Shown: positions 2,806-54,348, numbered from the stretch's first letter. The stretch: 64,000 nt of DNA from an uncultured Hyphomicrobiales bacterium (GCA_964465945.1 CAYXMM010000011.1:16702-80701); one strand, 5' to 3'. Numbers and translations are program-made. Notes: generated by a model from the sequence alone, not told the origin.

Positions 2806-3785
2806 TGCCAGAATTAATGGAATTGATTGAATTTTTAGATGAAAATGGGGATACTATAGTAAAAAGGATTCCTGAAAAAGGTAGTGGTGAATTTAAATTT
2901 GGTTCTCAACTAATAGTTCGAGAAAGTCAAAATGCTATCTTCTTTCGAGATGGAAAATGTTTAGATGTGTTTCCACCAGGAAGACATGTTCTAAGAACTC
3001 AGAATTTACCTTTAATAACAAAATTTGTAACTTCATTAGGATATGGTGAGAATAGTCCTTTTAAATCTGAAGTTTATTTTATTAATTTAAAATTATTTAG
3101 AAATTTAAAATGGGGTACAAAGGAACCAATATTATTTAGAGATGATGAATTTAAAATGGTTAGATTAAGAGGCTTTGGACTATTTTCTATTACAATAATT
3201 GAACCTACATTGTTTTTAAATAAAATAGTTGGAACTCAAAATACTTTTAAAGAATCAGATATTCTTGGTTATTTAAAATCAATAGTTATTCACAAATTAC
3301 AGATTGTTTTATCAAAGTCTTTTAAAGCTGTATTAGATTTACCAAGTAATCTTGATAAAATAAGTTTATTATTAAAAAAAGAAGTATTACTTGATTTTGA
3401 CTCACTTGGAATTGAGTTAAATGATTTTAATATTATATCATTATCGCTTCCTCCTGAAGTCCAAAAAATTATAGATACAAAAACTGGTATGACTGCAGTT
3501 GGTAATTTAGATGATTTTATGAAATTTCAATTAGGAAAATCTATTTTAAATTTATCTGAAAATAAAAGCGATAGTTTTGAAAATAGTTTTGCTTCTGGTT
3601 CAGGTATTGGAATGGGGATGCTAATACCTAACTTTTTAAATCAATCAGTTAAAAATAATACAGAAGACAAAGAAGAAGATATATATAGTAAATTAACTAA
3701 ATTGAAAGAGTTATTCGATAAAGGTATTATAAATGAAGAAGAATATACAAATAGTAAAAGAAAAATTTTAGATAATATAAAATAA
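2805..3785 (+). CDS. SPFH/Band-7-like (Band_7_1 family) protein with a C-terminal SHOCT domain and no transmembrane segment
   Basis: The N-terminal block EFLDENGDTIVKRIPEKGSGEFKFGSQLIVRESQNAIFFRDGK...PGRH.L.T.NLPLITK...SPFKSEVYFINLK matches the TM-less SPFH family that includes B. subtilis YdjI-like proteins; this is from memory. The C-terminal KLKELFDKGIINEEEYTNSKRKIL is a SHOCT motif. Confidence 0.65.
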   Translation: MPELMELIEFLDENGDTIVKRIPEKGSGEFKFGSQLIVRESQNAIFFRDGKCLDVFPPGRHVLRTQNLPLITKFVTSLGYGENSPFKSEVYFINLKLFRNLKWGTKEPILFRDDEFKMVRLRGFGLFSITIIEPTLFLNKIVGTQNTFKESDILGYLKSIVIHKLQIVLSKSFKAVLDLPSNLDKISLLLKKEVLLDFDSLGIELNDFNIISLSLPPEVQKIIDTKTGMTAVGNLDDFMKFQLGKSILNLSENKSDSFENSFASGSGIGMGMLIPNFLNQSVKNNTEDKEEDIYSKLTKLKELFDKGIINEEEYTNSKRKILDNIK

Positions 3786-24342: not shown

Positions 24343-24654
24343 ATGTTAAGACAAGGTGATGTTGTTGATCATAGTAGTGAATTAGTTAAGGAATTAGCTA
24401 TGAAGTTAATTAATTCTGATTTTCGTGAAAAGACAACACATCAATTAGCAAAGTATATAAACAGACTAAAATTTAGTGTAGAATCTACGCAATATCATCA
24501 TTATAATTGTGTTAGATTAGTAAAACTAATTAATCAAGAAATTAGTGAGTATTATTTTGAGAAATATGGCGACCCTGAAAGAGCAATGAATCATGAGTGT
24601 CTAATATATATTAAGTTATTAAATACATTAGTTAATAAATATCATAATGTGTAA
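24343..24654 (+). CDS. Hypothetical protein, coupled to the downstream nuclease gene
   Basis: It is 103 aa and overlaps the next gene by 1 nt. Confidence 0.4.
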   Translation: MLRQGDVVDHSSELVKELAMKLINSDFREKTTHQLAKYINRLKFSVESTQYHHYNCVRLVKLINQEISEYYFEKYGDPERAMNHECLIYIKLLNTLVNKYHNV

Positions 24655-27600
24655 TGAAGTATTTAATACATAGTAAGTTAGTTGAAGAATTAAGCCAATA
24701 TTATAATGAAAAGAATATTGAAGAAATTCTGATAAGCCAAGAAAAACAACATTCAAAAAACAAGACTATAATTGTTTATCCTACTACAAGACTTAAAACA
24801 TATCAAGAAAAAGAATTTATAAATAAACTTTGGGAAAATTCTAAAACTCCTTATTCACGTGATATATTCTTTAATTTTAGTGGTTTTTTATCTCATATTA
24901 AGCATTTAACTAATTTTAAAGAAGATAAAAGTTTAATAAAAGAAGATGAATTTTATGCGATAATGAAGCTTGTTTATGATGAAGTTGAGTTATCATATTT
25001 TGCGAAGGAAAATGAAAAGCCACGAAGGAAAATAAATAATTTGCTTTCAAGTGTTATATTTGGTTTCTTAAAAAAGGGTGTTAGTTTAACAGATTTAGAG
25101 TCAAAATTAAATGATAACTCAACAAATAGTGATAGACTTCAAGATATTATATTGATTTATAAAACATTTTTAGAAAAGACAAGTAACTATACTAATGAAA
25201 CTAAGCAAATTTATGATTTTAATGAATTTATTATTAACAACAATGTTGATTTTTCACAATTAACTAACGACATTTTTTACTTTGAGCATTTTAAGGAGTT
25301 TAATAGAAATGAAATTGAGTTGCTAAACACTTTGTTTAAACACAATTTAAAATTAATTATTAATTTTAAATATTTGAGTAAAAATAATCCGAGTGGTAAT
25401 ATTTTTGGAATTGGATATATTTTGTCTGATTGTTGTACTATAACTGAATTGAATAATGAGAGTGAAGTTTATAATAATATATCAACGCAATTGTTTTCTA
25501 ATAATTATGATGATAATAATGTTAAAAGTGATACTCATAGTAAAATAAATATTGTAGAGTTAGAGAATGATAAAAGAGAAATTAAGTATATTACTACTCT
25601 TGTTAAAAAATTAATAGTTGAAGATAATATTCTCCCAAAAGATATATTAATTTTAGCGCGAAATCCAAAAGGATATTCAAAATTACTAAAAAATGAATTT
25701 GATAAGAATAGTATACCTTTAAATGTCAGTGATAGACCAGCATTAAAAGAGTCTTCGATTATTGATTTAATTATTAATTATTTAAAATTAATTGATGCTA
25801 ATTTTAAATTATTAAATTTAGAAAAGGTAATTAAATCACCTTTTTTAGTTTATGATAGAGATAAGATTAATATTAATAAATTTATTAGTATTACTAAAAA
25901 ATATAGAAGTTTTTATGGTAATTATAATGAAAGACAAGATTATTTTAATAAAATATTAAATAATAATAATAATAATGAAGAAATTAGAGGTTATATTTCT
26001 CAATTAGAGTATATATTTGATTTTTTACATATAATAAATATAAAGAGTTCGTTTAGTAAGGCTGATTTTCTTGGTTTGGTTACAAGTTTTGTTAATTTAT
26101 TAAAATTAGATAATTTGAATAATATTATTAGTAGTGAAGGTGCAAGTTTTAATGATTTTTTAGTAACTCGTGAGAAAGAGAGGATATATAGTGCTATTGA
26201 CGCTTTGCTTGTTTCTATTGAGAGTGTTTATGATGTTAATTATAAAATTAATAATAAATTGGAATTGAGACTTAGTGAAATAATTGAAGAGCTTGATTTT
26301 ATTAAAGAGAAAAATAGATTTCAAATTAGAGAGTTATTTGATACTTCAGTTACGTTCACTTCAGTGGAACAGGCACGTGGTGTTGATAGGAAAGTAACAA
26401 TAATATGCGGGTTATTAGAAGGGGAATTTCCACTTCATTATAAAACAGATGAGGTTTTAGGAATTGATTTAACAAGTTCTGAGAATAAGCATATTGCGTT
26501 AGAGGAAGAATTATTTTTTGAAGCGATTTTTGTGAATGAAGCTTTGCCGGAACATCTTTATTTGACTTATTATAATAAAAAGGGAGTAAAAGATGTCATT
26601 CCTTCTCATTTTATGAATGAATTAAAGCGAGTTTTAAATAATAATTCTATTAATTTAATAAATATAGAAGAATCAGGTAATTTTATTAATAAATATAGTT
26701 TAATTAAGATTATTAATAAATTAAATAATATTGATTCTTTATTAGATAATTCTATAATTAATGGTTATTTAAGTGAATTAACTCAAACAAATAAATATAG
26801 AATAATAGGATATAAGCGTAATACTTTTTCGGCTTCACGTTTGGATAATTTTTATCATTTTCCATATTATTTTCTTTATAATAGTATTTTTAATATGAAG
26901 GAATTGGATAGTTATGAAGAAGAGCCAATGATAAAAGAAGTGGGGACTATTAATCACGAGATTTTATTTGAATTGTATACATTATTAAGTAATAATTCAA
27001 ATCTTAATAATTTGTCTCCATTTTATTTGCAATCTGTAAATGATAATTATAATAATATTTATCCTATAAGTTTTTTTAATTTTGATGTGGAATTTATTAA
27101 AAGTCAATTAGACAAAATTATTAATAATGTGTTTAATAAATTTCCACAAAATGAGTTTTTTAGTTTACAGAAGTACATTTCAAAGAAAATAATTTTAAAG
27201 ATATTAAATAACGAAATTAATTTAAAAAAATCAACTGATGGATTTGCTTTTCCAAGTGCTTTTGAGTTCAAATTTGGCTATAATAATGATAATTTTACAA
27301 TTCAGAATACTCACAGTCAAACGATTAATTTTAAAGGTAATATTGATAGGGTTGATTTAGATTTTGATGGTAGTAATTTATTATTAAGCGTTGTAGATTA
27401 CAAGTCAAGTGATAAAGATATTAAATATAGCTCTAGTTTTATTAAAGATGAATATAGCTTTCAGATGTTTTTATATCTTAAAGCAATGAAATCTGTTTTG
27501 ATTAATAATTTTAAATTGATAAAAGATGGGGTTGAATATATATTAAATGAAGATAATGTTATTTATAATTATGCTGCGTATTATAATATAAATAAAATAA

Positions 27601-27788
27601 GTTTAAACTATTATTTAAATAGAAGTAAACTTAAAGAGAAAGATGACCCTAATACTATAATTAGTTCAAAATTTGATGAAATGGAAAGTGAAATATTTAA
27701 TGTCTTTACCAAATTCGATAGTTTGGATTTAGCGCATTTGAATAAGGTTAATAAATACTCACCACAAACAAGTTTATTAATTAGATGA
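24654..27788 (+). CDS. PD-(D/E)XK nuclease family protein, AddB/RexB-like, with a degenerate helicase-like N-terminal region
   Basis: The C-terminal RecB-type nuclease motifs GNIDRVDLDFDGSNLLLSVVDYKSS are present. There is no Walker A motif and no adjacent AddA/UvrD partner. Confidence 0.65.
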   Translation: MKYLIHSKLVEELSQYYNEKNIEEILISQEKQHSKNKTIIVYPTTRLKTYQEKEFINKLWENSKTPYSRDIFFNFSGFLSHIKHLTNFKEDKSLIKEDEFYAIMKLVYDEVELSYFAKENEKPRRKINNLLSSVIFGFLKKGVSLTDLESKLNDNSTNSDRLQDIILIYKTFLEKTSNYTNETKQIYDFNEFIINNNVDFSQLTNDIFYFEHFKEFNRNEIELLNTLFKHNLKLIINFKYLSKNNPSGNIFGIGYILSDCCTITELNNESEVYNNISTQLFSNNYDDNNVKSDTHSKINIVELENDKREIKYITTLVKKLIVEDNILPKDILILARNPKGYSKLLKNEFDKNSIPLNVSDRPALKESSIIDLIINYLKLIDANFKLLNLEKVIKSPFLVYDRDKININKFISITKKYRSFYGNYNERQDYFNKILNNNNNNEEIRGYISQLEYIFDFLHIINIKSSFSKADFLGLVTSFVNLLKLDNLNNIISSEGASFNDFLVTREKERIYSAIDALLVSIESVYDVNYKINNKLELRLSEIIEELDFIKEKNRFQIRELFDTSVTFTSVEQARGVDRKVTIICGLLEGEFPLHYKTDEVLGIDLTSSENKHIALEEELFFEAIFVNEALPEHLYLTYYNKKGVKDVIPSHFMNELKRVLNNNSINLINIEESGNFINKYSLIKIINKLNNIDSLLDNSIINGYLSELTQTNKYRIIGYKRNTFSASRLDNFYHFPYYFLYNSIFNMKELDSYEEEPMIKEVGTINHEILFELYTLLSNNSNLNNLSPFYLQSVNDNYNNIYPISFFNFDVEFIKSQLDKIINNVFNKFPQNEFFSLQKYISKKIILKILNNEINLKKSTDGFAFPSAFEFKFGYNNDNFTIQNTHSQTINFKGNIDRVDLDFDGSNLLLSVVDYKSSDKDIKYSSSFIKDEYSFQMFLYLKAMKSVLINNFKLIKDGVEYILNEDNVIYNYAAYYNINKISLNYYLNRSKLKEKDDPNTIISSKFDEMESEIFNVFTKFDSLDLAHLNKVNKYSPQTSLLIR

Positions 27789-45623: not shown

Positions 45624-47432
45624 ATGAAAAAATACATTCCAGTCATAGTTTCAATCTTTGGTTTTATTATTTATGCTTTAACGGCTTTTCAACATCTTAC
45701 ATATACCGATAATGGTGAATTAGCAGCAGTGGCAGTTACTCTTGGTATCTCCCACCCTACTGGATATCCTTTGTTTATTATTTTATCACATATCTGGAGT
45801 ATGTTACCATTTGGGCTAGACATTGTATATAAATTGAATTTATTTTCTGGTTTTGCAATATCAATTTCTTTATACTTTATTTATAGAATATTTGAAATGA
45901 TTTTAGTTAGTTTTCAAGCGAAGGAATCTACAAATATAATTTTATCTTCAAGTTTGACATTGGCTTTAGCGTTTGGAAATTTAATATGGCAACAAGCAGG
46001 TAATTTTGAAGTATATCCTTTACATATTTTATTTCTTGTTCTGATTATAAACTTTTCGTTAAAGTTGATTTATAGTTTTAATGAGAAGACTTTATTTATT
46101 TTGTTTTTTCTTTTGGGATTAAGTTTTACAAATCATCTAACAACTATACTTATTGTGCCGTCAATGTTATTTTTATTACTTTTTGATACAAATTTTAAAA
46201 TTAGAAGCTTAGAAAGGAAGGTTTATTTAATTGGTTTTGGTCTTTTCTTCTTAGCATTATCAATATATTTATATTTACCAATACGCGCGAGTATGCAACC
46301 TCTATTTAACTGGGGAGATGTGAGTCGAAGTTGGGATAAATTTTTATATCATGTTTCAGGTAAGCAATATCAAGTTTGGATGTTTACAGGGACTGAAGCA
46401 ATGAAAGCAAATTTAGCGAAATTGCCTGAAATACTTTGGGGACAATTTCAATTTTTACTTTTTCCAATTGTTTTGGGTTTGTATTATGCATTTAAAAAGT
46501 CAAGATATATATTCACGTTTTTATTAATTGCAGCTTTGACAACTACTTTTTATTCAATCAACTATACAATTCATGATATTGAACCATATTTTAACTTATT
46601 GATTATTTCACTTGGAGTATTTTCAGTTTACGGAATGATATTGTTAATTAAGAGAAATTCTTATGTTAAATATGTTCCTTTTTTAATTTTCTTTTCGTTG
46701 TTTATCACAAATTATAAGTCGAATGATGATTCTGAAAATAACATTGTTGAGGTGTATACACATAATATGGTTGATTTGTTGGAGCCAAATGCGGTTATTT
46801 TATCTGCACAATGGGATTTTTGGGTGTCGGCTTTCTGGTTTGAGCAATTTATTGAAAATCGAAGAAAAGATGTCATTGTGATAGAGAAAGAGATATTGCG
46901 AAGAACTTGGTATCCTAAGCAATTATTACAATGGTATCCTACTTTAAATTCTTCAAAGCCAGAACTTGATAGATATATGCCACAACTTATGTTATTTGAA
47001 GCGGAAAAACCATATAATCAAATAGAAATCCAAGAATCTTTTGTTAGTTTGCTTAAATCATTTATTGAAAGAAATATTGATAAAAGACCGATTTATTTAA
47101 CATTAGATGTGATGCAAACTGAACCAGAATTGATGAAATCATATATATTAAAGCCAGAGGGCTTGGCGTTCCGTGTTTATAAAGAAGAGCCAATCGTCCA
47201 TTATAGTAAATTGAATAGTTTAATATTAGATGATATTCTTAAAAAGGAGAGTGATTATTTAAATCATTTAGATATTGGAATGAGACAAAATATTGCAACG
47301 ACTTATGTAAATATTGCGAGATTTCATTATAGACAGAATCAATTGGACTCGGCTTTAGTGGCAGCGAAGAAGTCTTTACTTTTTGAAAAGAACAACCAAT
47401 TTGCGAATCAAATGATAAATGAGTTAAAGTAA
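45624..47432 (+). CDS. DUF2723/PMT-like membrane glycosyltransferase family protein with a C-terminal TPR region
   Basis: The likely start is the ATG at 45624 (MKKYIPVIV), although the ORF track begins at 45588. It has more than 10 TM helices followed by a soluble helical-repeat tail. Confidence 0.5.
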   Translation: MKKYIPVIVSIFGFIIYALTAFQHLTYTDNGELAAVAVTLGISHPTGYPLFIILSHIWSMLPFGLDIVYKLNLFSGFAISISLYFIYRIFEMILVSFQAKESTNIILSSSLTLALAFGNLIWQQAGNFEVYPLHILFLVLIINFSLKLIYSFNEKTLFILFFLLGLSFTNHLTTILIVPSMLFLLLFDTNFKIRSLERKVYLIGFGLFFLALSIYLYLPIRASMQPLFNWGDVSRSWDKFLYHVSGKQYQVWMFTGTEAMKANLAKLPEILWGQFQFLLFPIVLGLYYAFKKSRYIFTFLLIAALTTTFYSINYTIHDIEPYFNLLIISLGVFSVYGMILLIKRNSYVKYVPFLIFFSLFITNYKSNDDSENNIVEVYTHNMVDLLEPNAVILSAQWDFWVSAFWFEQFIENRRKDVIVIEKEILRRTWYPKQLLQWYPTLNSSKPELDRYMPQLMLFEAEKPYNQIEIQESFVSLLKSFIERNIDKRPIYLTLDVMQTEPELMKSYILKPEGLAFRVYKEEPIVHYSKLNSLILDDILKKESDYLNHLDIGMRQNIATTYVNIARFHYRQNQLDSALVAAKKSLLFEKNNQFANQMINELK

Positions 47433-47526
47433 ATTAAATGTTTTTAAAATTTATAACTTTATATTTATCTTTACGTTATTAGAAAACTTAGTTTTATTAA
47501 TTACAAATTACAATTATTTACATTTT

Positions 47527-49914
47527 ATGAAGTATATTATTTTTTTGTTATTGCTCTTTACTTATTTGTCAATTAAATCGGCTGTGATATCAGGGAATAT
47601 AAGTGATAAGACAAGCGGAGAAGTGATTATAGGGGCTTCAGTGTCTATTCACGTTATTACTTCTTCTACGGATAGTAGCTTATATAGTATAGTCGAAGGG
47701 CAAAAGGTTATGAATACACCTGTGAAAGGTGCATTTTCTAATCAATATGGCTTTTATTCGATTGCTAATGTAAATGGGGGGAAATATGCTTTAGTAGTAA
47801 AGAGCATTGGCTATGAGGTTTATTATAGAATAATAGAAGTGAAGGAAAATAATATTAGAGTAAATATTGAAATTAATTCAAGTTCGGTTTTGACAGAAGA
47901 GGTTACAGTTGTAGGTGATAAAGATTTTACACCAACAGCGAAGATTTCAAGTGTTGAAATTTCACCTACATTTATAAATAAGATGCCTCAACTTTTTAGT
48001 GAGGTTGATGTGTTTAGAACATTGCAGTTACTTCCTGGGGTAGCATCTGCGAATGAGCTTTCATCTGGTTTGTATGTTAGAGGTGGATCGCCAGACCAAA
48101 ATTTAATATTACTTGATGGAGTAATAGTTTATAATCCATCTCACATGGCTGGATTTTTATCTACATTTAATTCAGATGCTCTCAATGATATAAAATTAAT
48201 AAAGGGGGCGTTGCCTGCTGAATATGGTGGAAGATTATCAGCAGTGCTTGATATGTATATGAAAGAAGGGACAAAAGAAAGGGTATCTGGTAAAGGGGCA
48301 ATTAGTTTAATAAGTTCGAAATTGACATTGGAGGGTCCTATTACGGAGGATGCAACTTTTATGGTTTCTGGGAGGCGGTTTTATTTTGATTTGTTAACAG
48401 CGGCTATGCCTGATGATAATATGCCACAGTATTACTTTTATGATTTGAATGGGAAAGTGAATATAAAGTTAGGTGAAAATGATAGGATTTTTGCTTCTGG
48501 TTATTTTGGAAGAGATGTAATGGATTATAATGAGAAGAATTTTTCTGATGAGGAGGGCATAGATTTTAATTGGGGAAATAAGACGTTTAATTTAAGGTGG
48601 AAGCATATTGCGAGTCCTGTTCTCTTTACAAACTTTTCTTTAATTTACACAAACTATAATTCTAAACTTTCATTAACTAATTCATTCAATACAGGGGAAG
48701 GTGTTGATAATTCATCTTTTGCTTCTGTTTCTGGGATTGAAGATTTTACATTTAATGGAAAAAGTGAGTATTTTGGAATTGATAATCATTTAATAAAAGT
48801 TGGGTTTGAATTTACTAAACATCAGTTTGTATCAGGGGTTACAAGTAATTTTGCACCTGGTGAATTTATAGATGGGTTGATTAATGATAGAAAAATTGAT
48901 GCGATAGATTTAGCGATTTATGCGCAAGATGAATGGAAAATTACTGATAAGTTATCTACGAATTATGGTACAAGGTTGTATTATTTCCAACAGGGTGATT
49001 ATATTAAATTTGAACCTCGATTTTCTCTTTCTTACCAATTAACTGATAGAACTACGCTTGTTGGTTCAGCAGCAGCGGCAAATCAGTTTTTACATTTGAT
49101 TGTTAGGAATGATATTAATCTACCGACTGATTTGTGGTTTCCATCTACAAGCAAGGTTGCTCCAGAGTATTCAACTCAAGCGGTTCTTGGGGTACATAAT
49201 AAGTTAGGTAAAGATAGGTCTTGGACTTTGAATATTGAAGGTTATTATAAAGATATGCAGAATTTGTTAGAGTATAAGCAGGATGCTCAGTTTACACTTG
49301 GGACTCCTGTTGAATCTCAATTTACAAAAGGATTTGGTTGGGCTTATGGATTGGAAGTGTTTTTAGAAAAGAAGATTGGAAAGTTTACAGGTTGGATCGG
49401 TTATACACTTGCTTTGACGAAAAGAAAATTTGCTGAATTAAATAATGGAAATTCTTTTTTTCCAAGGTATGATAGGCGACATGATTTTTCAATTGTTACT
49501 ACATTTGAGATAAGTGAAAGTTGGGAAGTGGGTGCTTCATGGATTTATGCGACAGGGCAAGCTTATACAATGCCAACTGGACTTTATCAAGATGTAGGTT
49601 TGAATGGAACAATAAATGGCGGGTTTGATGGTATGAGTTCAGTTTGGGGCTCAAAGTATCAATATACTGATAGGAATGGTTTTAGGTTGCCAAGTTATCA
49701 TCGTTTAGATTTGAATTTAATGTATAAATATAAGTGGTTTGGCTTGCCTTGGGTGGCGTCAATTAATGTGTTTAATACTTATAATAGGAAAAATCCTTTT
49801 GCTTGGTATATTGATACAGATTATGATGAGAGTAGGGGTAAGGATGTTAAAAAACTTACTCAAATGACATTATTTCCAATTATTCCAACTGTTGGTTTGA
49901 GTTTTGAATTTTAA
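47527..49914 (+). CDS. TonB-dependent receptor with an N-terminal carboxypeptidase-regulatory-like domain
   Basis: It has a signal peptide, a CarbopepD_reg-like segment (ISGNISDKTSGEVIIGASV), a plug/barrel and a C-terminal Phe. Confidence 0.8.
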   Translation: MKYIIFLLLLFTYLSIKSAVISGNISDKTSGEVIIGASVSIHVITSSTDSSLYSIVEGQKVMNTPVKGAFSNQYGFYSIANVNGGKYALVVKSIGYEVYYRIIEVKENNIRVNIEINSSSVLTEEVTVVGDKDFTPTAKISSVEISPTFINKMPQLFSEVDVFRTLQLLPGVASANELSSGLYVRGGSPDQNLILLDGVIVYNPSHMAGFLSTFNSDALNDIKLIKGALPAEYGGRLSAVLDMYMKEGTKERVSGKGAISLISSKLTLEGPITEDATFMVSGRRFYFDLLTAAMPDDNMPQYYFYDLNGKVNIKLGENDRIFASGYFGRDVMDYNEKNFSDEEGIDFNWGNKTFNLRWKHIASPVLFTNFSLIYTNYNSKLSLTNSFNTGEGVDNSSFASVSGIEDFTFNGKSEYFGIDNHLIKVGFEFTKHQFVSGVTSNFAPGEFIDGLINDRKIDAIDLAIYAQDEWKITDKLSTNYGTRLYYFQQGDYIKFEPRFSLSYQLTDRTTLVGSAAAANQFLHLIVRNDINLPTDLWFPSTSKVAPEYSTQAVLGVHNKLGKDRSWTLNIEGYYKDMQNLLEYKQDAQFTLGTPVESQFTKGFGWAYGLEVFLEKKIGKFTGWIGYTLALTKRKFAELNNGNSFFPRYDRRHDFSIVTTFEISESWEVGASWIYATGQAYTMPTGLYQDVGLNGTINGGFDGMSSVWGSKYQYTDRNGFRLPSYHRLDLNLMYKYKWFGLPWVASINVFNTYNRKNPFAWYIDTDYDESRGKDVKKLTQMTLFPIIPTVGLSFEF

Positions 49915-51046: not shown

Positions 51047-51179
51047 AATTACCTTAAAATTTGTCGTTTATTTTAAGTAATTAATAATTTAGATGCGATT
51101 TTGTTACATTTTTTTGAAAATATTTTTAAAATGTTGAAAAGTTTGTATTTTAAAAAGTAAATTTTTGTCATATTTTATT

Positions 51180-52154
51180 TCAGTTATGTTTACTTTTAAT
51201 TAGTATTCTAAAATAAGGATATTTGCCATTAATTGACAAATCTTTACCATCGTTCCCTTTTCTGAATTTAACTATTTCAAATTGCTCGGGATTAAATTTA
51301 TGTAAAAAAGTAATAGGTACCCCCATATAGCCCTTATAGTCTATCGGTATATCTTGTGTCTGATTTACATTAATTCCCTCATAATTATCATATTTTGGAT
51401 ATTCATTTTCATTACCTATATATCTTTTAGTAAGTTTAATATTTTTATGTCGCTCAGAAATATCTAAGTTGGTAAGCCACAAGCAATTATTTGGAGATAC
51501 TATTCTGTTACCTAAATTATCAATACGTGCCTCTGTACCATAAAGATTATAATACTCTGGAACAATAAAACCTGAAATACCTCTTCCTAGATTTATACCT
51601 AACCATGCTTTATTTTCTTTAATTAGTTTAAAAATTTCTTTATAGGTTATTGCATTAATATTTCCAATTATTAAGAACTTTTTATCGTATTTAACTAGTT
51701 GAGCAACATACTCTCTAAATAGTGAAAAAGGAGGGTTGGTAACAACAATATCAGATTGCTTTAATAAATTAATACTTTCTGAACTACGAAAATCTCCATC
51801 GCCATTAAAATATATAATATCTAGTGAACTAAATGTATTCTCATCTAATTCTTTACCAACATACTCACAGAAAAATCCTTTTTTCTCTTCTTGATTGCTA
51901 AATAAATCGTTGTTTCGTTCTATATAACATGAAGCAATTAATTTCTTAAGACCTAATTCTTTAAAGTTTAGGGCAAAGTATTTGAAAAAATTACTACTTC
52001 GGGGGTCATCGCAGTTACAATAAACTACTTTATTTTTAAAATGATCTTTATAATGTTTTAATTCACTTTCAATATCAATAAGTTGAGTGTAAAACTCATC
52101 ACTCTTTGATTTTTTTGCTTTTTGCAATAATTTATTTGTTGAATTTCTTGCCAT
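51180..52154 (-). CDS. N6-adenine DNA methyltransferase of the EcoRI type, predicted to modify GAATTC
   Basis: It is 324 aa. The N terminus MARNSTNKLLQKAKKSKSDEFYTQ...VVYCNCDDPRSSNFFKYFALNF...VTNPPFSLF is near-identical to my recollection of M.EcoRI (MARNATNKLLHKAKKSKSDEFYTQ..., 326 aa). The NPPF catalytic motif is present. Confidence 0.8.
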   Translation of the reverse strand: MARNSTNKLLQKAKKSKSDEFYTQLIDIESELKHYKDHFKNKVVYCNCDDPRSSNFFKYFALNFKELGLKKLIASCYIERNNDLFSNQEEKKGFFCEYVGKELDENTFSSLDIIYFNGDGDFRSSESINLLKQSDIVVTNPPFSLFREYVAQLVKYDKKFLIIGNINAITYKEIFKLIKENKAWLGINLGRGISGFIVPEYYNLYGTEARIDNLGNRIVSPNNCLWLTNLDISERHKNIKLTKRYIGNENEYPKYDNYEGINVNQTQDIPIDYKGYMGVPITFLHKFNPEQFEIVKFRKGNDGKDLSINGKYPYFRILIKSKHN

Positions 52155-52178
52155 TTTAAATCTTTCTTGCTTAATAAA

Positions 52179-53013
52179 TTACTTTTGTTTTGTTAACTGA
52201 ACAAATAGATCGCTACCTAATATTTGAAGAGAGGTTTTGGAAATATCAAGCATAATATCAAACATACTTTTTTCATTCCACTTCCCACCTTTTCCTTGAG
52301 TATATATAGATGTTGATTGAAGCATTATTGATTTATCTTTATGCTTAATGTACTTATTCTTGCACAAGTTAGTGTTAATTGGTAATCCATAGTTTGCAGA
52401 AGTTAATCTATCTAATCTATTAAGCATTCCTGAATTGTATTCTAATGTAACAACTCTACCATCTGGTCTTTTAATTGAAATAGTTTCGGTTAGAAAATTT
52501 GAACCTTCAAGAAATAAGACGTAAGGAAAATGAGATTCTGATAACATTAAATTAGCGATTTCTGAAATGTTTTTATGTGACCTTTCAATTGCATTACCAG
52601 CTGCCATAAGGTCTTGATTATTTCCTTTACCAACAAGTTTTCCACTTTTGATATTTTCTATATCTTTTCCTTGATGTTTAGCTTCAGATATTAATATTAT
52701 TCTCCAATTTCCATAATCATCTTTAACTTCTATTATTCCTCCATCGGGTTTAATACTTGAATTTGATACAAACAGAGTTTGCCCTAATTCAGGATCAATT
52801 TTTTGTAATGCTTCATTAATTTCCTTTTACTTATATTTGTCTTGTATTTAAAAGATAATTGTGGAAAATCTTTTTTAAGTTGGTTAATTATTTGGTTTGA
52901 AATTTTTCCAACAGTGGGGTCAAGTGATTTTGCTCCATCACCAAATATACCAACAACTCCTTTAGATTCTTCGTGCTGATTCGTTAATCTTTCAGATTGA
53001 TTTTTTTAGACAT
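52179..53013 (-). pseudogene. R.EcoRI-homologue restriction endonuclease gene disrupted by two -1 frameshifts
   Basis: Its C-terminal 142 aa (MAAGNAIERSHKNISEIANLMLSESHFPYVLFLEGSNFLTE...) is near-identical to EcoRI endonuclease residues about 137-277 as I recall them. The N-terminal half is readable only across three frames. MSKK reads in frame 0. Then QSERLTNQHEESKGVVGIFGD...QLSFKYKTNISK follows after a slip in the A7 run (plus-strand T7 at 53001-53007). Then KEINEALQKIDPELGQTLFVSNSSIKPDGGIIEVKDDYGNWRIILISEAKHQGKD follows after a slip in an A4 run (plus-strand TTTT at 52826-52829). Restoring one A at each site would give a continuous protein of about 278 aa with the PD...EAK catalytic residues. 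Confidence 0.75.
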
Positions 53014-53190
53014 ATATTTATTTTATAATGTTATTTAATGCAAAAATACAAACTTTATTCTTTTACTAAAAAAATAAAAGCAGTCTTTATCATTGAAATA
53101 AATTCGTTTTTATAATTAAAAGTTTTAGTTTATAATTTTTCATATAAAATAAAAAAAGAAATATTAATCAGAATCTTGGATTTTAAGGTT

Positions 53191-54348
53191 TTAAAAGAAA
53201 GGAAAGAGTTTTACAATTATGATAAAAGCAATTAAAATTTGGAATACATATTTGCTAACTTTGTATTTTTTTAGTAGGAAATCAATCATATATACTGACA
53301 ATAGGGTAAGGGAAACTACTAGAAAGACAAGTAGCAAAGTTTTGCTTAAATCAAATATGTTTAGCTTAAAGTATCCTTGGAATGCGGGGGTGTATAGAAA
53401 GAAATTATAGATGAAATATAGGTGTATAACATAAACTAATAATGATCTTTTTCCGAACATTAAGACAATGTGTTTTTTGGTTAGTAATTCATCAATAAAG
53501 CTTGCGATAAATATGTATACAAATGTAATGGATAATCTAAAAAGTATTAAACCAATAGATAGTCTATCCATATATAAAATGGATTGAAAGAAACTGCCTT
53601 CATAACTATGTTGTAAATAGAAGATTATGAATATTGTAGTTGCTAATATAAGTGACGATATTCTGATATAAGATTTATGTTCATATTTAGTTTTCTTTAA
53701 CATTAGTCCAAAAACAATTCCAGCAAAGAAGTATGCTGCTGTTGGAAAAATTGGGAAAATTGAGCCGTAATTAAAAGTAAAATAAGAAGCAAAGAATGGG
53801 TGTATACCTTCGTATAATTTATAACTTTCAATTAAATGCCCACCAAAGCTGAATATTAATATAAGAAATCCTGAAACAATTAGATGTGCAATTTCACTTT
53901 TGATGAATTTCATTAAAATGACGTTCATTATTAAACAAACGCCAATTAGTTGAAGGATATTAACTTCAAATAATCGTAAAAGACGCTGGTCGCTCATTAC
54001 AAGCATATCCATTAATGAGCCAGGTAAATGTAAAAGTAGTGAGAGAATAACTAATGAAATACCGAGGATAATTCGTTTACGAAAAGTTTTTTTATGAATA
54101 TTCCCAAATTCATCTCTTTTATTTGCGAAGATTTGGACAGCGCCTGACACGACTAAAAAGACGGGTGCAGTAAATCCCCTATTTAGTTCCCAAAGTAGCC
54201 ACCAGAATGAGCCAGTGTGAATAGTAGTTGTGTCTAAAAAAGCATAGATTGTGTGACCTTGCATCATTAAAACCATAGCAATAAAACGGGTTAAATCAAA
54301 GATAGTAATCCGTTTTTTTGGTTTTTCTATGATGTGGTCTTTTGTCAT
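53191..54348 (-). CDS. Acyltransferase-3/DUF1624-like integral membrane protein
   Basis: It has about 10 TM helices, and the N terminus reads RITIFDLTRFIAMVLMMQGH. Confidence 0.5.
   Translation of the reverse strand: MTKDHIIEKPKKRITIFDLTRFIAMVLMMQGHTIYAFLDTTTIHTGSFWWLLWELNRGFTAPVFLVVSGAVQIFANKRDEFGNIHKKTFRKRIILGISLVILSLLLHLPGSLMDMLVMSDQRLLRLFEVNILQLIGVCLIMNVILMKFIKSEIAHLIVSGFLILIFSFGGHLIESYKLYEGIHPFFASYFTFNYGSIFPIFPTAAYFFAGIVFGLMLKKTKYEHKSYIRISSLILATTIFIIFYLQHSYEGSFFQSILYMDRLSIGLILFRLSITFVYIFIASFIDELLTKKHIVLMFGKRSLLVYVIHLYFIYNFFLYTPAFQGYFKLNIFDLSKTLLLVFLVVSLTLLSVYMIDFLLKKYKVSKYVFQILIAFIIIVKLFPFF

Follow-up and report, generated by a model that had tools for sequence, protein, structure and literature searches.

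The EcoRI restriction-modification (R-M) system of Escherichia coli plasmids, in which the endonuclease gene (ecoRIR; R) precedes the methyltransferase gene (ecoRIM; M) and whose endonuclease has been solved (PDB 1ERI and 1CKQ), has a relative in the DNA of an uncultured bacterium. The related locus lies at positions 51180-53013, on the minus strand, of a 64,000-nucleotide stretch (CAYXMM010000011.1:16702-80701 of assembly GCA_964465945.1), which is called the window here and from which all positions are counted. The locus is read here as an EcoRI-family cassette that was inserted horizontally, whose R gene has since decayed to a pseudogene, and whose intact M gene is probably transcribed and would act as a solitary methyltransferase. 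We assign this reading a probability of roughly 85%.

The resemblance to the E. coli system extends to the gene order, the shared strand, the short spacer between the genes (24 nucleotides (nt) here versus 29 nt), and a low guanine-plus-cytosine (GC) content (27.8% here versus 32.6%). In contrast to the E. coli system, R is a pseudogene, the location is chromosomal in a bacterium of the Fibrobacteres-Chlorobi-Bacteroidetes (FCB) type, and a Bacteroidota-type motif (TAnnTTTG), not the E. coli promoter region, is found upstream. EcoRI also has antisense and internal promoters (PMC3141266).

Environmental EcoRI-family cassettes, such as those of a Bacteroidia metagenome-assembled genome (MAG; L003), a Melioribacteraceae MAG (L007), and Microcystis, are alike in forming a two-gene unit and share 82-85% protein identity with the present one. 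Members of this group in FCB hosts also have the conserved leader and the candidate promoter motif described below. They differ in that R is mostly intact (51 of ~70 loci), and none was found to be a donor closer than 85% for any block of the cassette in the window.

Solitary Type II methyltransferases that result from the decay of R offer a third comparison, and lineage-specific orphan methylases are a recognized category (PMC12707154). As in such cases, an intact M gene adjoins a frameshifted cognate R gene; the decay is early here, with R full-length apart from point deletions. R-M gene complexes can also be viewed as selfish elements of the Kobayashi type, mobile units whose insertion is accompanied by short target repeats. 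The cassette resembles these elements in being a bare R-M unit with no mobility gene, in its intergenic position, in its short imperfect direct repeat, and in the empty site found in a relative. It is unlike them in that its repeat, an AT-rich 8-9-mer, is found 26 times in the window.

An endonuclease pseudogene beside an intact methyltransferase gene

The R gene (52179-53013, minus strand) is read in three frames in succession, which cover codons 1-4, codons ~5-63, and codon 64 to the stop. Insertion of one A in the A7 run at 53001-53007 (site 1) and of one base at the A4 run at 52825-52828 (site 2) restores a protein of 278 amino acids (aa). The repaired protein matches EcoRI chains in PDB (1CKQ, 4e-133) and all 257 of 257 positions of the Pfam EcoRI profile (PF02963, 3e-145), and it aligns with E. 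coli EcoRI without gaps at 72.6% identity over 277 aa. Identity to the EcoRI plasmid genes is 71.3% at the DNA level. The residues needed for catalysis (D91, E111, and K113, in EcoRI numbering) and for recognition of GAATTC (M137-R145, R200, and R203) are all retained. The similarity and these residues assign R to the EcoRI endonuclease family. Its open reading frame (ORF) is interrupted, however, and the locus is therefore an EcoRI-family pseudogene and not an enzyme gene. Both the identity of the gene and its lesions are far beyond chance.

Site 1 falls in codons 3-5 (Lys-Lys-Asn), for which the sequence in intact homologues is A8 or AAAAAGAA, and its lesion causes translation to stop after 9 codons. 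Site 2, AGTAAAAGGAAATT, lies near codon 63-64 in the context AGTAAAAGG, which contains the A4 run. One base is gone there, either an A (A5 to A4) or a G (G3 to G2), and AGTAAAAGGAAATT is restorable either way. No ATG, GTG, or TTG occurs in frame between site 2 and Met137 of the R gene in the window, and its longest ORF is the 142-aa C-terminal part, without the catalytic residues. Because site 1 ends translation at 9 codons and because no start codon is available between site 2 and Met137, it is predicted that no R product with D91, E111, and K113 can be made. We also rejected the idea that ribosomal frameshifting or transcriptional slippage rescues R: two separate corrections would be required, including one in a run of 4 nt, and there is no in-frame start between site 2 and Met137. 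The window holds no second EcoRI-like copy that could act as a gene-conversion partner.

A third position is intact in the window. This position, site 3 (52605-52607, minus strand), is the ATG of Met137, with which the recognition motif MAAGNAIER starts. In other strains the A at 52607 is lost, which changes CTTATGG to CTTTGG, and the deletion is not in a homopolymer.

The M gene (51180-52154, minus strand) is an uninterrupted ORF of 324 aa, separated from the R stop codon by the 24-nt spacer (52155-52178, minus strand). Its product matches Pfam EcoRI_methylase (PF13651, E=5.6e-133) and the PADLOC model MTase_II (1.5e-153), and it is 72.4% identical to E. coli M.EcoRI in a gap-free alignment of 322 aa. 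The motifs NPPF (residue 140) and GDGDF (residue 118) occupy the same positions as in M.EcoRI. Full-length similarity, an intact ORF, and motifs at the family positions identify M as an M.EcoRI-family N6-adenine methyltransferase. No solved structure is similar to it by sequence, and its best match in the species-representative genome collection, which does not include the genome of the window, is 82%. The cognate R has kept all EcoRI recognition residues, and for this reason the substrate of M is probably GAATTC. The cassette shows no compositional anomaly, with a GC content of 27.8% versus 29.9% for the whole window.

A first-pass annotation of the window had recognized an EcoRI-like Type II operon in which R precedes an intact M, and had located two -1 frameshifts in R; the gene order, the Pfam and PDB matches, the uninterrupted M frame, and the three successive frames of R all bear this out. 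Its coordinates for the second tract were off by one, and its estimate of 80-85% identity to E. coli EcoRI was too high for both proteins. A figure of 82-85% applies to the nearest environmental homologues.

Lesions in independent assemblies of the organism

The states of the tracts were judged from independent assemblies and not from reads. An exact look-up of the M protein led to a Logan contig (L001/L085), and a look-up of the 88-aa protein encoded next to the cassette led to further assemblies from other runs and projects, so that Logan, SPAdes-type, and MEGAHIT-type assemblies could be compared. The Logan contig, which represents four samples, matches the window at 100% identity along 12.9 kb, a region that includes both frameshifts. 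Eight evaluable assemblies of this near-clonal organism carry the cassette, in five cassette haplotypes and from at least eight samples, and R is broken in all eight.

The combination of lesions varies among the strains. Sites 1 and 2 are deleted in the window and L085; all three sites in L083, L087, L088, and L091; sites 2 and 3 in L084 and L090; and site 3 only in L086 (the same as L002). The deletion at site 2 is thus common to all sampled haplotypes except L086, and that at site 3, which is not in the window, is present in seven of the seven other fully evaluable assemblies. The tract at site 1 is A7 in the window, L083, L087, L088, and L091, and A8 in L084, L086, and L090.

One strain has lost part of M as well. 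In L088, a 492-bp deletion (52273-51782; L088 2989-3951) bounded by AAAGTAT microhomology removes the first 124 codons of M and fuses the 3' end of R to the remainder, which creates a chimeric ORF of 320 aa. Such a loss of M is tolerable only if R is already inactive, and it therefore provides an internal consistency check on the dead state of R. Of the assemblies with full coverage of M, all but L088 have an uninterrupted M, and R has one to three lesions in each.

These comparisons bear on the reading in which the frameshifts are homopolymer sequencing or assembly errors that hide a functional GAATTC R-M system. Both lesions of the window are within A runs, and homopolymer errors are possible in MAG assemblies. 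However, k-mer-based assembly in four samples gave a sequence identical to the window, and the site 2 deletion is common to haplotypes from different projects and assemblers whose cassettes are otherwise 6-19% divergent. Short-read platforms are not prone to errors in an A4/A5 run, the further deletion that other strains carry at site 3 is not in a homopolymer, and the partial deletion of M in L088 would be lethal with an active R. Databases also hold no intact R protein from this species: a search of the repaired R against 5.8 billion proteins found none more than 85% identical, although an intact conspecific allele would score 91-100%. The frameshifts are real, and sequencing error is effectively excluded.

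Scans of Joint Genome Institute (JGI) metagenome contigs with two probes, a 38-mer conserved in R and a 40-mer from the neighbouring gene, produced no matches. Another assembly, L089, begins with a 53-nt inverted copy of the 3' region of the acyltransferase gene (L089 1-53), followed by R with large gaps; this arrangement is probably an assembly artefact at the contig end.

The same data speak to the possibility of phase variation, in which slippage in the A7/A8 tract would switch restriction on and off. Strains do differ in the length of this tract, and codons 3-5 are a typical site for contingency tracts. However, every A8 haplotype is still broken at site 2, site 3, or both, and therefore tract length alone restores none of them; the locus has no otherwise open frame for the tract to toggle. 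Moreover, A8 in L084/L090 and in L086 sits within imported divergent patches and not in the same background as A7. The tract is only 7-8 nt long, the second lesion is in a run of 4-5 nt, and the third is not homopolymeric. Among intact homologues, A8 occurs in 11 of 49. Phase variation is therefore very improbable. Because most intact homologues interrupt the run with AAG, the tract appears to be a by-product of AT-rich codon choice for Lys-Lys-Asn, and a mutational weak point, rather than a conserved device. Decay toward a solitary methylase, a phase-variable switch, and sequencing error were the three alternatives left by the first-pass annotation, and only the first survives: the A8 haplotypes are broken, and an identical independent assembly exists in four samples.

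Insertion site, origin, and leader

A sister lineage (L093-L097), which is ~87% identical in the flanks, has no cassette. In these sequences the stop codon of the acyltransferase gene is followed by 103 bp and then by the 88-aa gene. Comparison of the junctions delimits an insert of ~2.04 kb (~51156-53196) that contains only the leader, R, and M. With an empty site in a related genome and defined junctions, the element qualifies as a horizontally acquired cassette. Because the site is empty in the sister lineage, the cassette is horizontally acquired, as had been proposed from the window.

The insert is flanked by imperfect direct repeats, TTTTAAAA(C/T). The left junction repeat, TTTTAAAAC (53188-53196, minus strand), overlaps the stop codon of the acyltransferase gene, and the right one is TTTTAAAAT (51147-51155, minus strand); the empty site has a single copy (TTTTAAAAC). 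Because this AT-rich motif has 26 occurrences in the window, a target duplication and microhomology are indistinguishable as sources of the repeat.

The host's YchF protein shares 72-73% identity with proteins whose names come from MAGs of Candidatus Kapabacteria/Kapaibacteriales, which places the host approximately, as an uncultured Kapaibacteria-like (FCB) bacterium.

A non-coding leader (53014-53187, minus strand) precedes R, and other FCB-type hosts have cassettes in which its proximal ~60 nt are conserved. Within it, TATTTTTG (53041-53048, minus strand) matches the Bacteroidota -7 consensus TAnnTTTG. The motif is located ~27-30 nt upstream of the R start, and the same motif is found at the same distance in many homologous cassettes. 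This position and conservation make it a candidate operon promoter. TAnnTTTG occurs inside the cassette at chance density (3 versus about 2.6 expected), and only the copy upstream of R gains support, from its conservation; another match, 105 nt upstream of M (52266-52259), is of a kind present at chance density. A scan for sigma-70 promoters was uninformative (21 sites versus 17.7 expected), and no terminators were found.

The motif and its surroundings are conserved in the cassettes of FCB-type hosts and are absent from the cyanobacterial and E. coli versions. For this reason, the cassette seems to have been drawn from an FCB-adapted pool, and its presence here is unremarkable.

Decay of endonuclease genes across the family

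The family is very large, with 5375 homologues of R, and its conservation between phyla is strong (80-85%). Homologues of M that are 76-82% identical are found in genomes of Bacteroidota, Cyanobacteria, Desulfobacterota, Chlorobi, and candidate phyla. The family is also AT-rich, with a median GC content of 31.8% for intact R genes, compared with 32.6% for E. coli EcoRI. Given these numbers, the many loci in Bacteroidota, and the conserved Bacteroidota-type motif, the view of the first-pass annotation that such a system is remarkable in an AT-rich FCB genome does not hold.

The base rate of R decay was estimated from the 80 best loci with an M homologue, one per species-representative genome and many of them in Bacteroidota; ~70 were evaluable. 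Because the list was ranked on M, it is biased toward intact M. The upstream R is intact in 51 loci, frameshifted in 7, interrupted by a premature stop in 1, reduced to a remnant in ~8, missing in 2, and cut by the contig end in 10. M is full-length in all but one (L036, a contig-cut locus whose M match has a stop). A decayed R beside an intact M is thus found in about a quarter of evaluable loci, in ~18 genomes.

Microcystis chromosomes (L011/L013 and L008/L018) carry two M.EcoRI-family genes each, one with an intact R and the other with ~30 C-terminal codons of R. The ~30-codon remnant is a later stage of the same decay. Three readable R frameshifts in other genomes (L004 ~1555-1565, L066 ~3605-3612, and L048 ~1590) are all in short homopolymer runs. 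Two of these genomes are affected in the CATAAAAAC run at His147-Lys148-Asn149, and one in a GGG of the AAGN motif. These could be real hot spots or MAG errors.

A mosaic cassette in near-identical genomes

Outside the cassette, all cassette-bearing assemblies (L083-L092 compared with the window) are at least 99.5% identical on both sides. Between ~53290 and ~51000, however, the sequence is a patchwork of blocks that differ by 12-22% (78-88% identical) and that form at least five haplotypes, which recur across samples and assemblers. Patches of the R pseudogene have ratios of nonsynonymous to synonymous substitution rates (dN/dS) of 0.07-0.2, with dS up to 0.8, and M has dN/dS of 0.08-0.18 between haplotypes. 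The combination of low dN/dS with high dS in the patches suggests that this locus has repeatedly undergone homologous replacement, with segments derived from functional EcoRI-family cassettes that had diverged. A search for donors among the 120 best R homologues gave at most 79-98% per block and no clear donor.

The M alleles of L084, L087, and L089-L092 are 333 aa long, not 324, because their final codons and stop differ (…SKLNKPEQAKIQP versus …SKHN; equivalent to window 51180-51190). In the same alleles, GNGDF replaces GDGDF at residue 118. Two more short spots of strain divergence lie outside the cassette, at ~47400-47600 (91% identity) and ~45900-46100 (96%); the first is the intergenic region from a TMEM260-like gene to a TonB-dependent receptor gene.

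An assembler could produce such a mosaic by threading EcoRI-like alleles of other organisms into the contigs of this one. The high conservation of the family does create shared k-mers, including an 85-bp identical stretch, and many short contigs carry the neighbouring gene, which suggests fragmentation of the assembly graph at the cassette. However, the haplotypes recur across samples and assemblers: L084 is the same as L090; L087 is the same as L091 and, where they overlap, as L089 and L092; and the window is the same as L085 in four samples. The patches also bear frameshifts, unlike functional foreign alleles, and on both sides each contig rejoins flanks with at least 99.5% identity. Given that the haplotypes are reproducible and all bear frameshifts, assembly chimerism is possible but less likely than genuine replacement, and we regard it as improbable.

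A further, quite speculative proposal is that the cassette is a recombination hot spot. A resident methylase would pre-protect the genome, so that incoming EcoRI-family DNA would be tolerated and would repeatedly convert patches of the resident locus. The complementary null alleles could then form a population-level, recombination-based switch for restriction, as opposed to plain decay: recombination between L086, in which sites 1 and 2 are intact, and the window, in which site 3 is intact, could regenerate a functional nuclease. The mosaic of a 2-kb cassette in near-identical genomes is the sole less ordinary feature of the locus, and it might repay further work.

Is the methyltransferase in use?

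We propose that a minimal EcoRI-family Type IIP cassette of ~2.04 kb, with a leader carrying its candidate promoter, R, a 24-nt spacer, and M, was inserted by horizontal transfer into the 103-bp intergenic region between the acyltransferase gene and the 88-aa ORF. Small deletions have since inactivated R, leaving the true pseudogene seen in the window. M could be transcribed from the retained cassette promoter, by reading through the R pseudogene, or from a promoter inside the 3' end of R. The second route would resemble that of EcoRI, whose M promoters PM1,M2 are located within the ecoRIR coding sequence (PMC3141266). M is intact and has no functional cognate R, which makes it a solitary methyltransferase, and as such it would methylate GAATTC. 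The identities of the genes, the lesions and their presence in independent assemblies, the limits of the insert, and the mosaic in the population are direct observations, whereas we infer this specificity, the activity of M, and the promoter from sequence features.

It is alternatively conceivable that the whole cassette is a dead relic, in which M is neither expressed nor selected and is intact only for lack of time. In L088 the 5' part of M is gone with no obvious effect, dN/dS fails to demonstrate selection on M given that the R pseudogene is equally low, and the GAATTC signal is not clear. However, M is uninterrupted in all full-coverage assemblies except L088, versus one to three lesions in every R; its catalytic NPPF and GDGDF motifs are at the EcoRI positions; the predicted upstream promoter motif is retained; and, across the family, a full-length M stands beside a decayed R in ~18 genomes. 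A dead relic is unlikely, although it is the least unlikely of the alternatives considered here.

Several observations weigh against the preferred reading of a decayed R beside a working solitary M. Low-frequency intact variants of R may exist within samples, where they would be invisible in assemblies. A recombinant of block I-b of L086 (intact at sites 1 and 2) with block II-a of the window (intact at site 3) would have an open R and could exist unsampled, although none was seen among the assemblies. R has three small indels and M has no such change, a contrast that falls short of significance (p about 0.1 by length). The low dN/dS of M (0.08-0.18) is matched by that of the R pseudogene patches (0.07-0.2), and one strain has a truncated M. 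Because the values for M and R are alike, both record divergence as functional genes before import, and dN/dS of M was rejected as evidence of selection. Finally, the frequency of GAATTC, which the first-pass annotation had suggested as a check, reveals mild depletion at most: the window has 16 sites, versus 27.7 expected from a Markov model or 21.3 at order 0. In 12 kb of aligned flanks, the cassette-free sister lineage has no GAATTC and the cassette-bearing strains have three. No footprint of long restriction pressure is seen at GAATTC.

Two other hexamers are scarcer. CATATG (the NdeI site) is absent from the window, versus 10.9 (Markov) or 21.3 (base composition) expected, and ATGCAT occurs 3 times versus 11.3 expected. 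These depletions suggest present or past pressure from other R-M systems, which would be encoded outside the window. Elsewhere in the window, and unrelated to the cassette, an ORF of 1044 aa (24654-27788, plus strand) carries a nuclease domain of the PD-(D/E)XK type at its C terminus (Pfam PDDEXK_1, 1.1e-12) and may be AddB-like.

Implications

The locus exemplifies a real but ordinary case of R-M decay toward a solitary methylase, which is a known kind of event. It should be annotated as an EcoRI-family R pseudogene with a probably active solitary methylase of predicted GAATTC specificity, and not as a functional defence system. This change of annotation alters the susceptibility to phages and plasmids that would be predicted for the organism, as well as its predicted methylome. 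Biologically, the cassette gives a well-documented natural view of how Type II systems usually end, with R the first to be lost and M retained; it offers several independent inactivating lesions, one strain that has since lost M as well, and a clean empty site.

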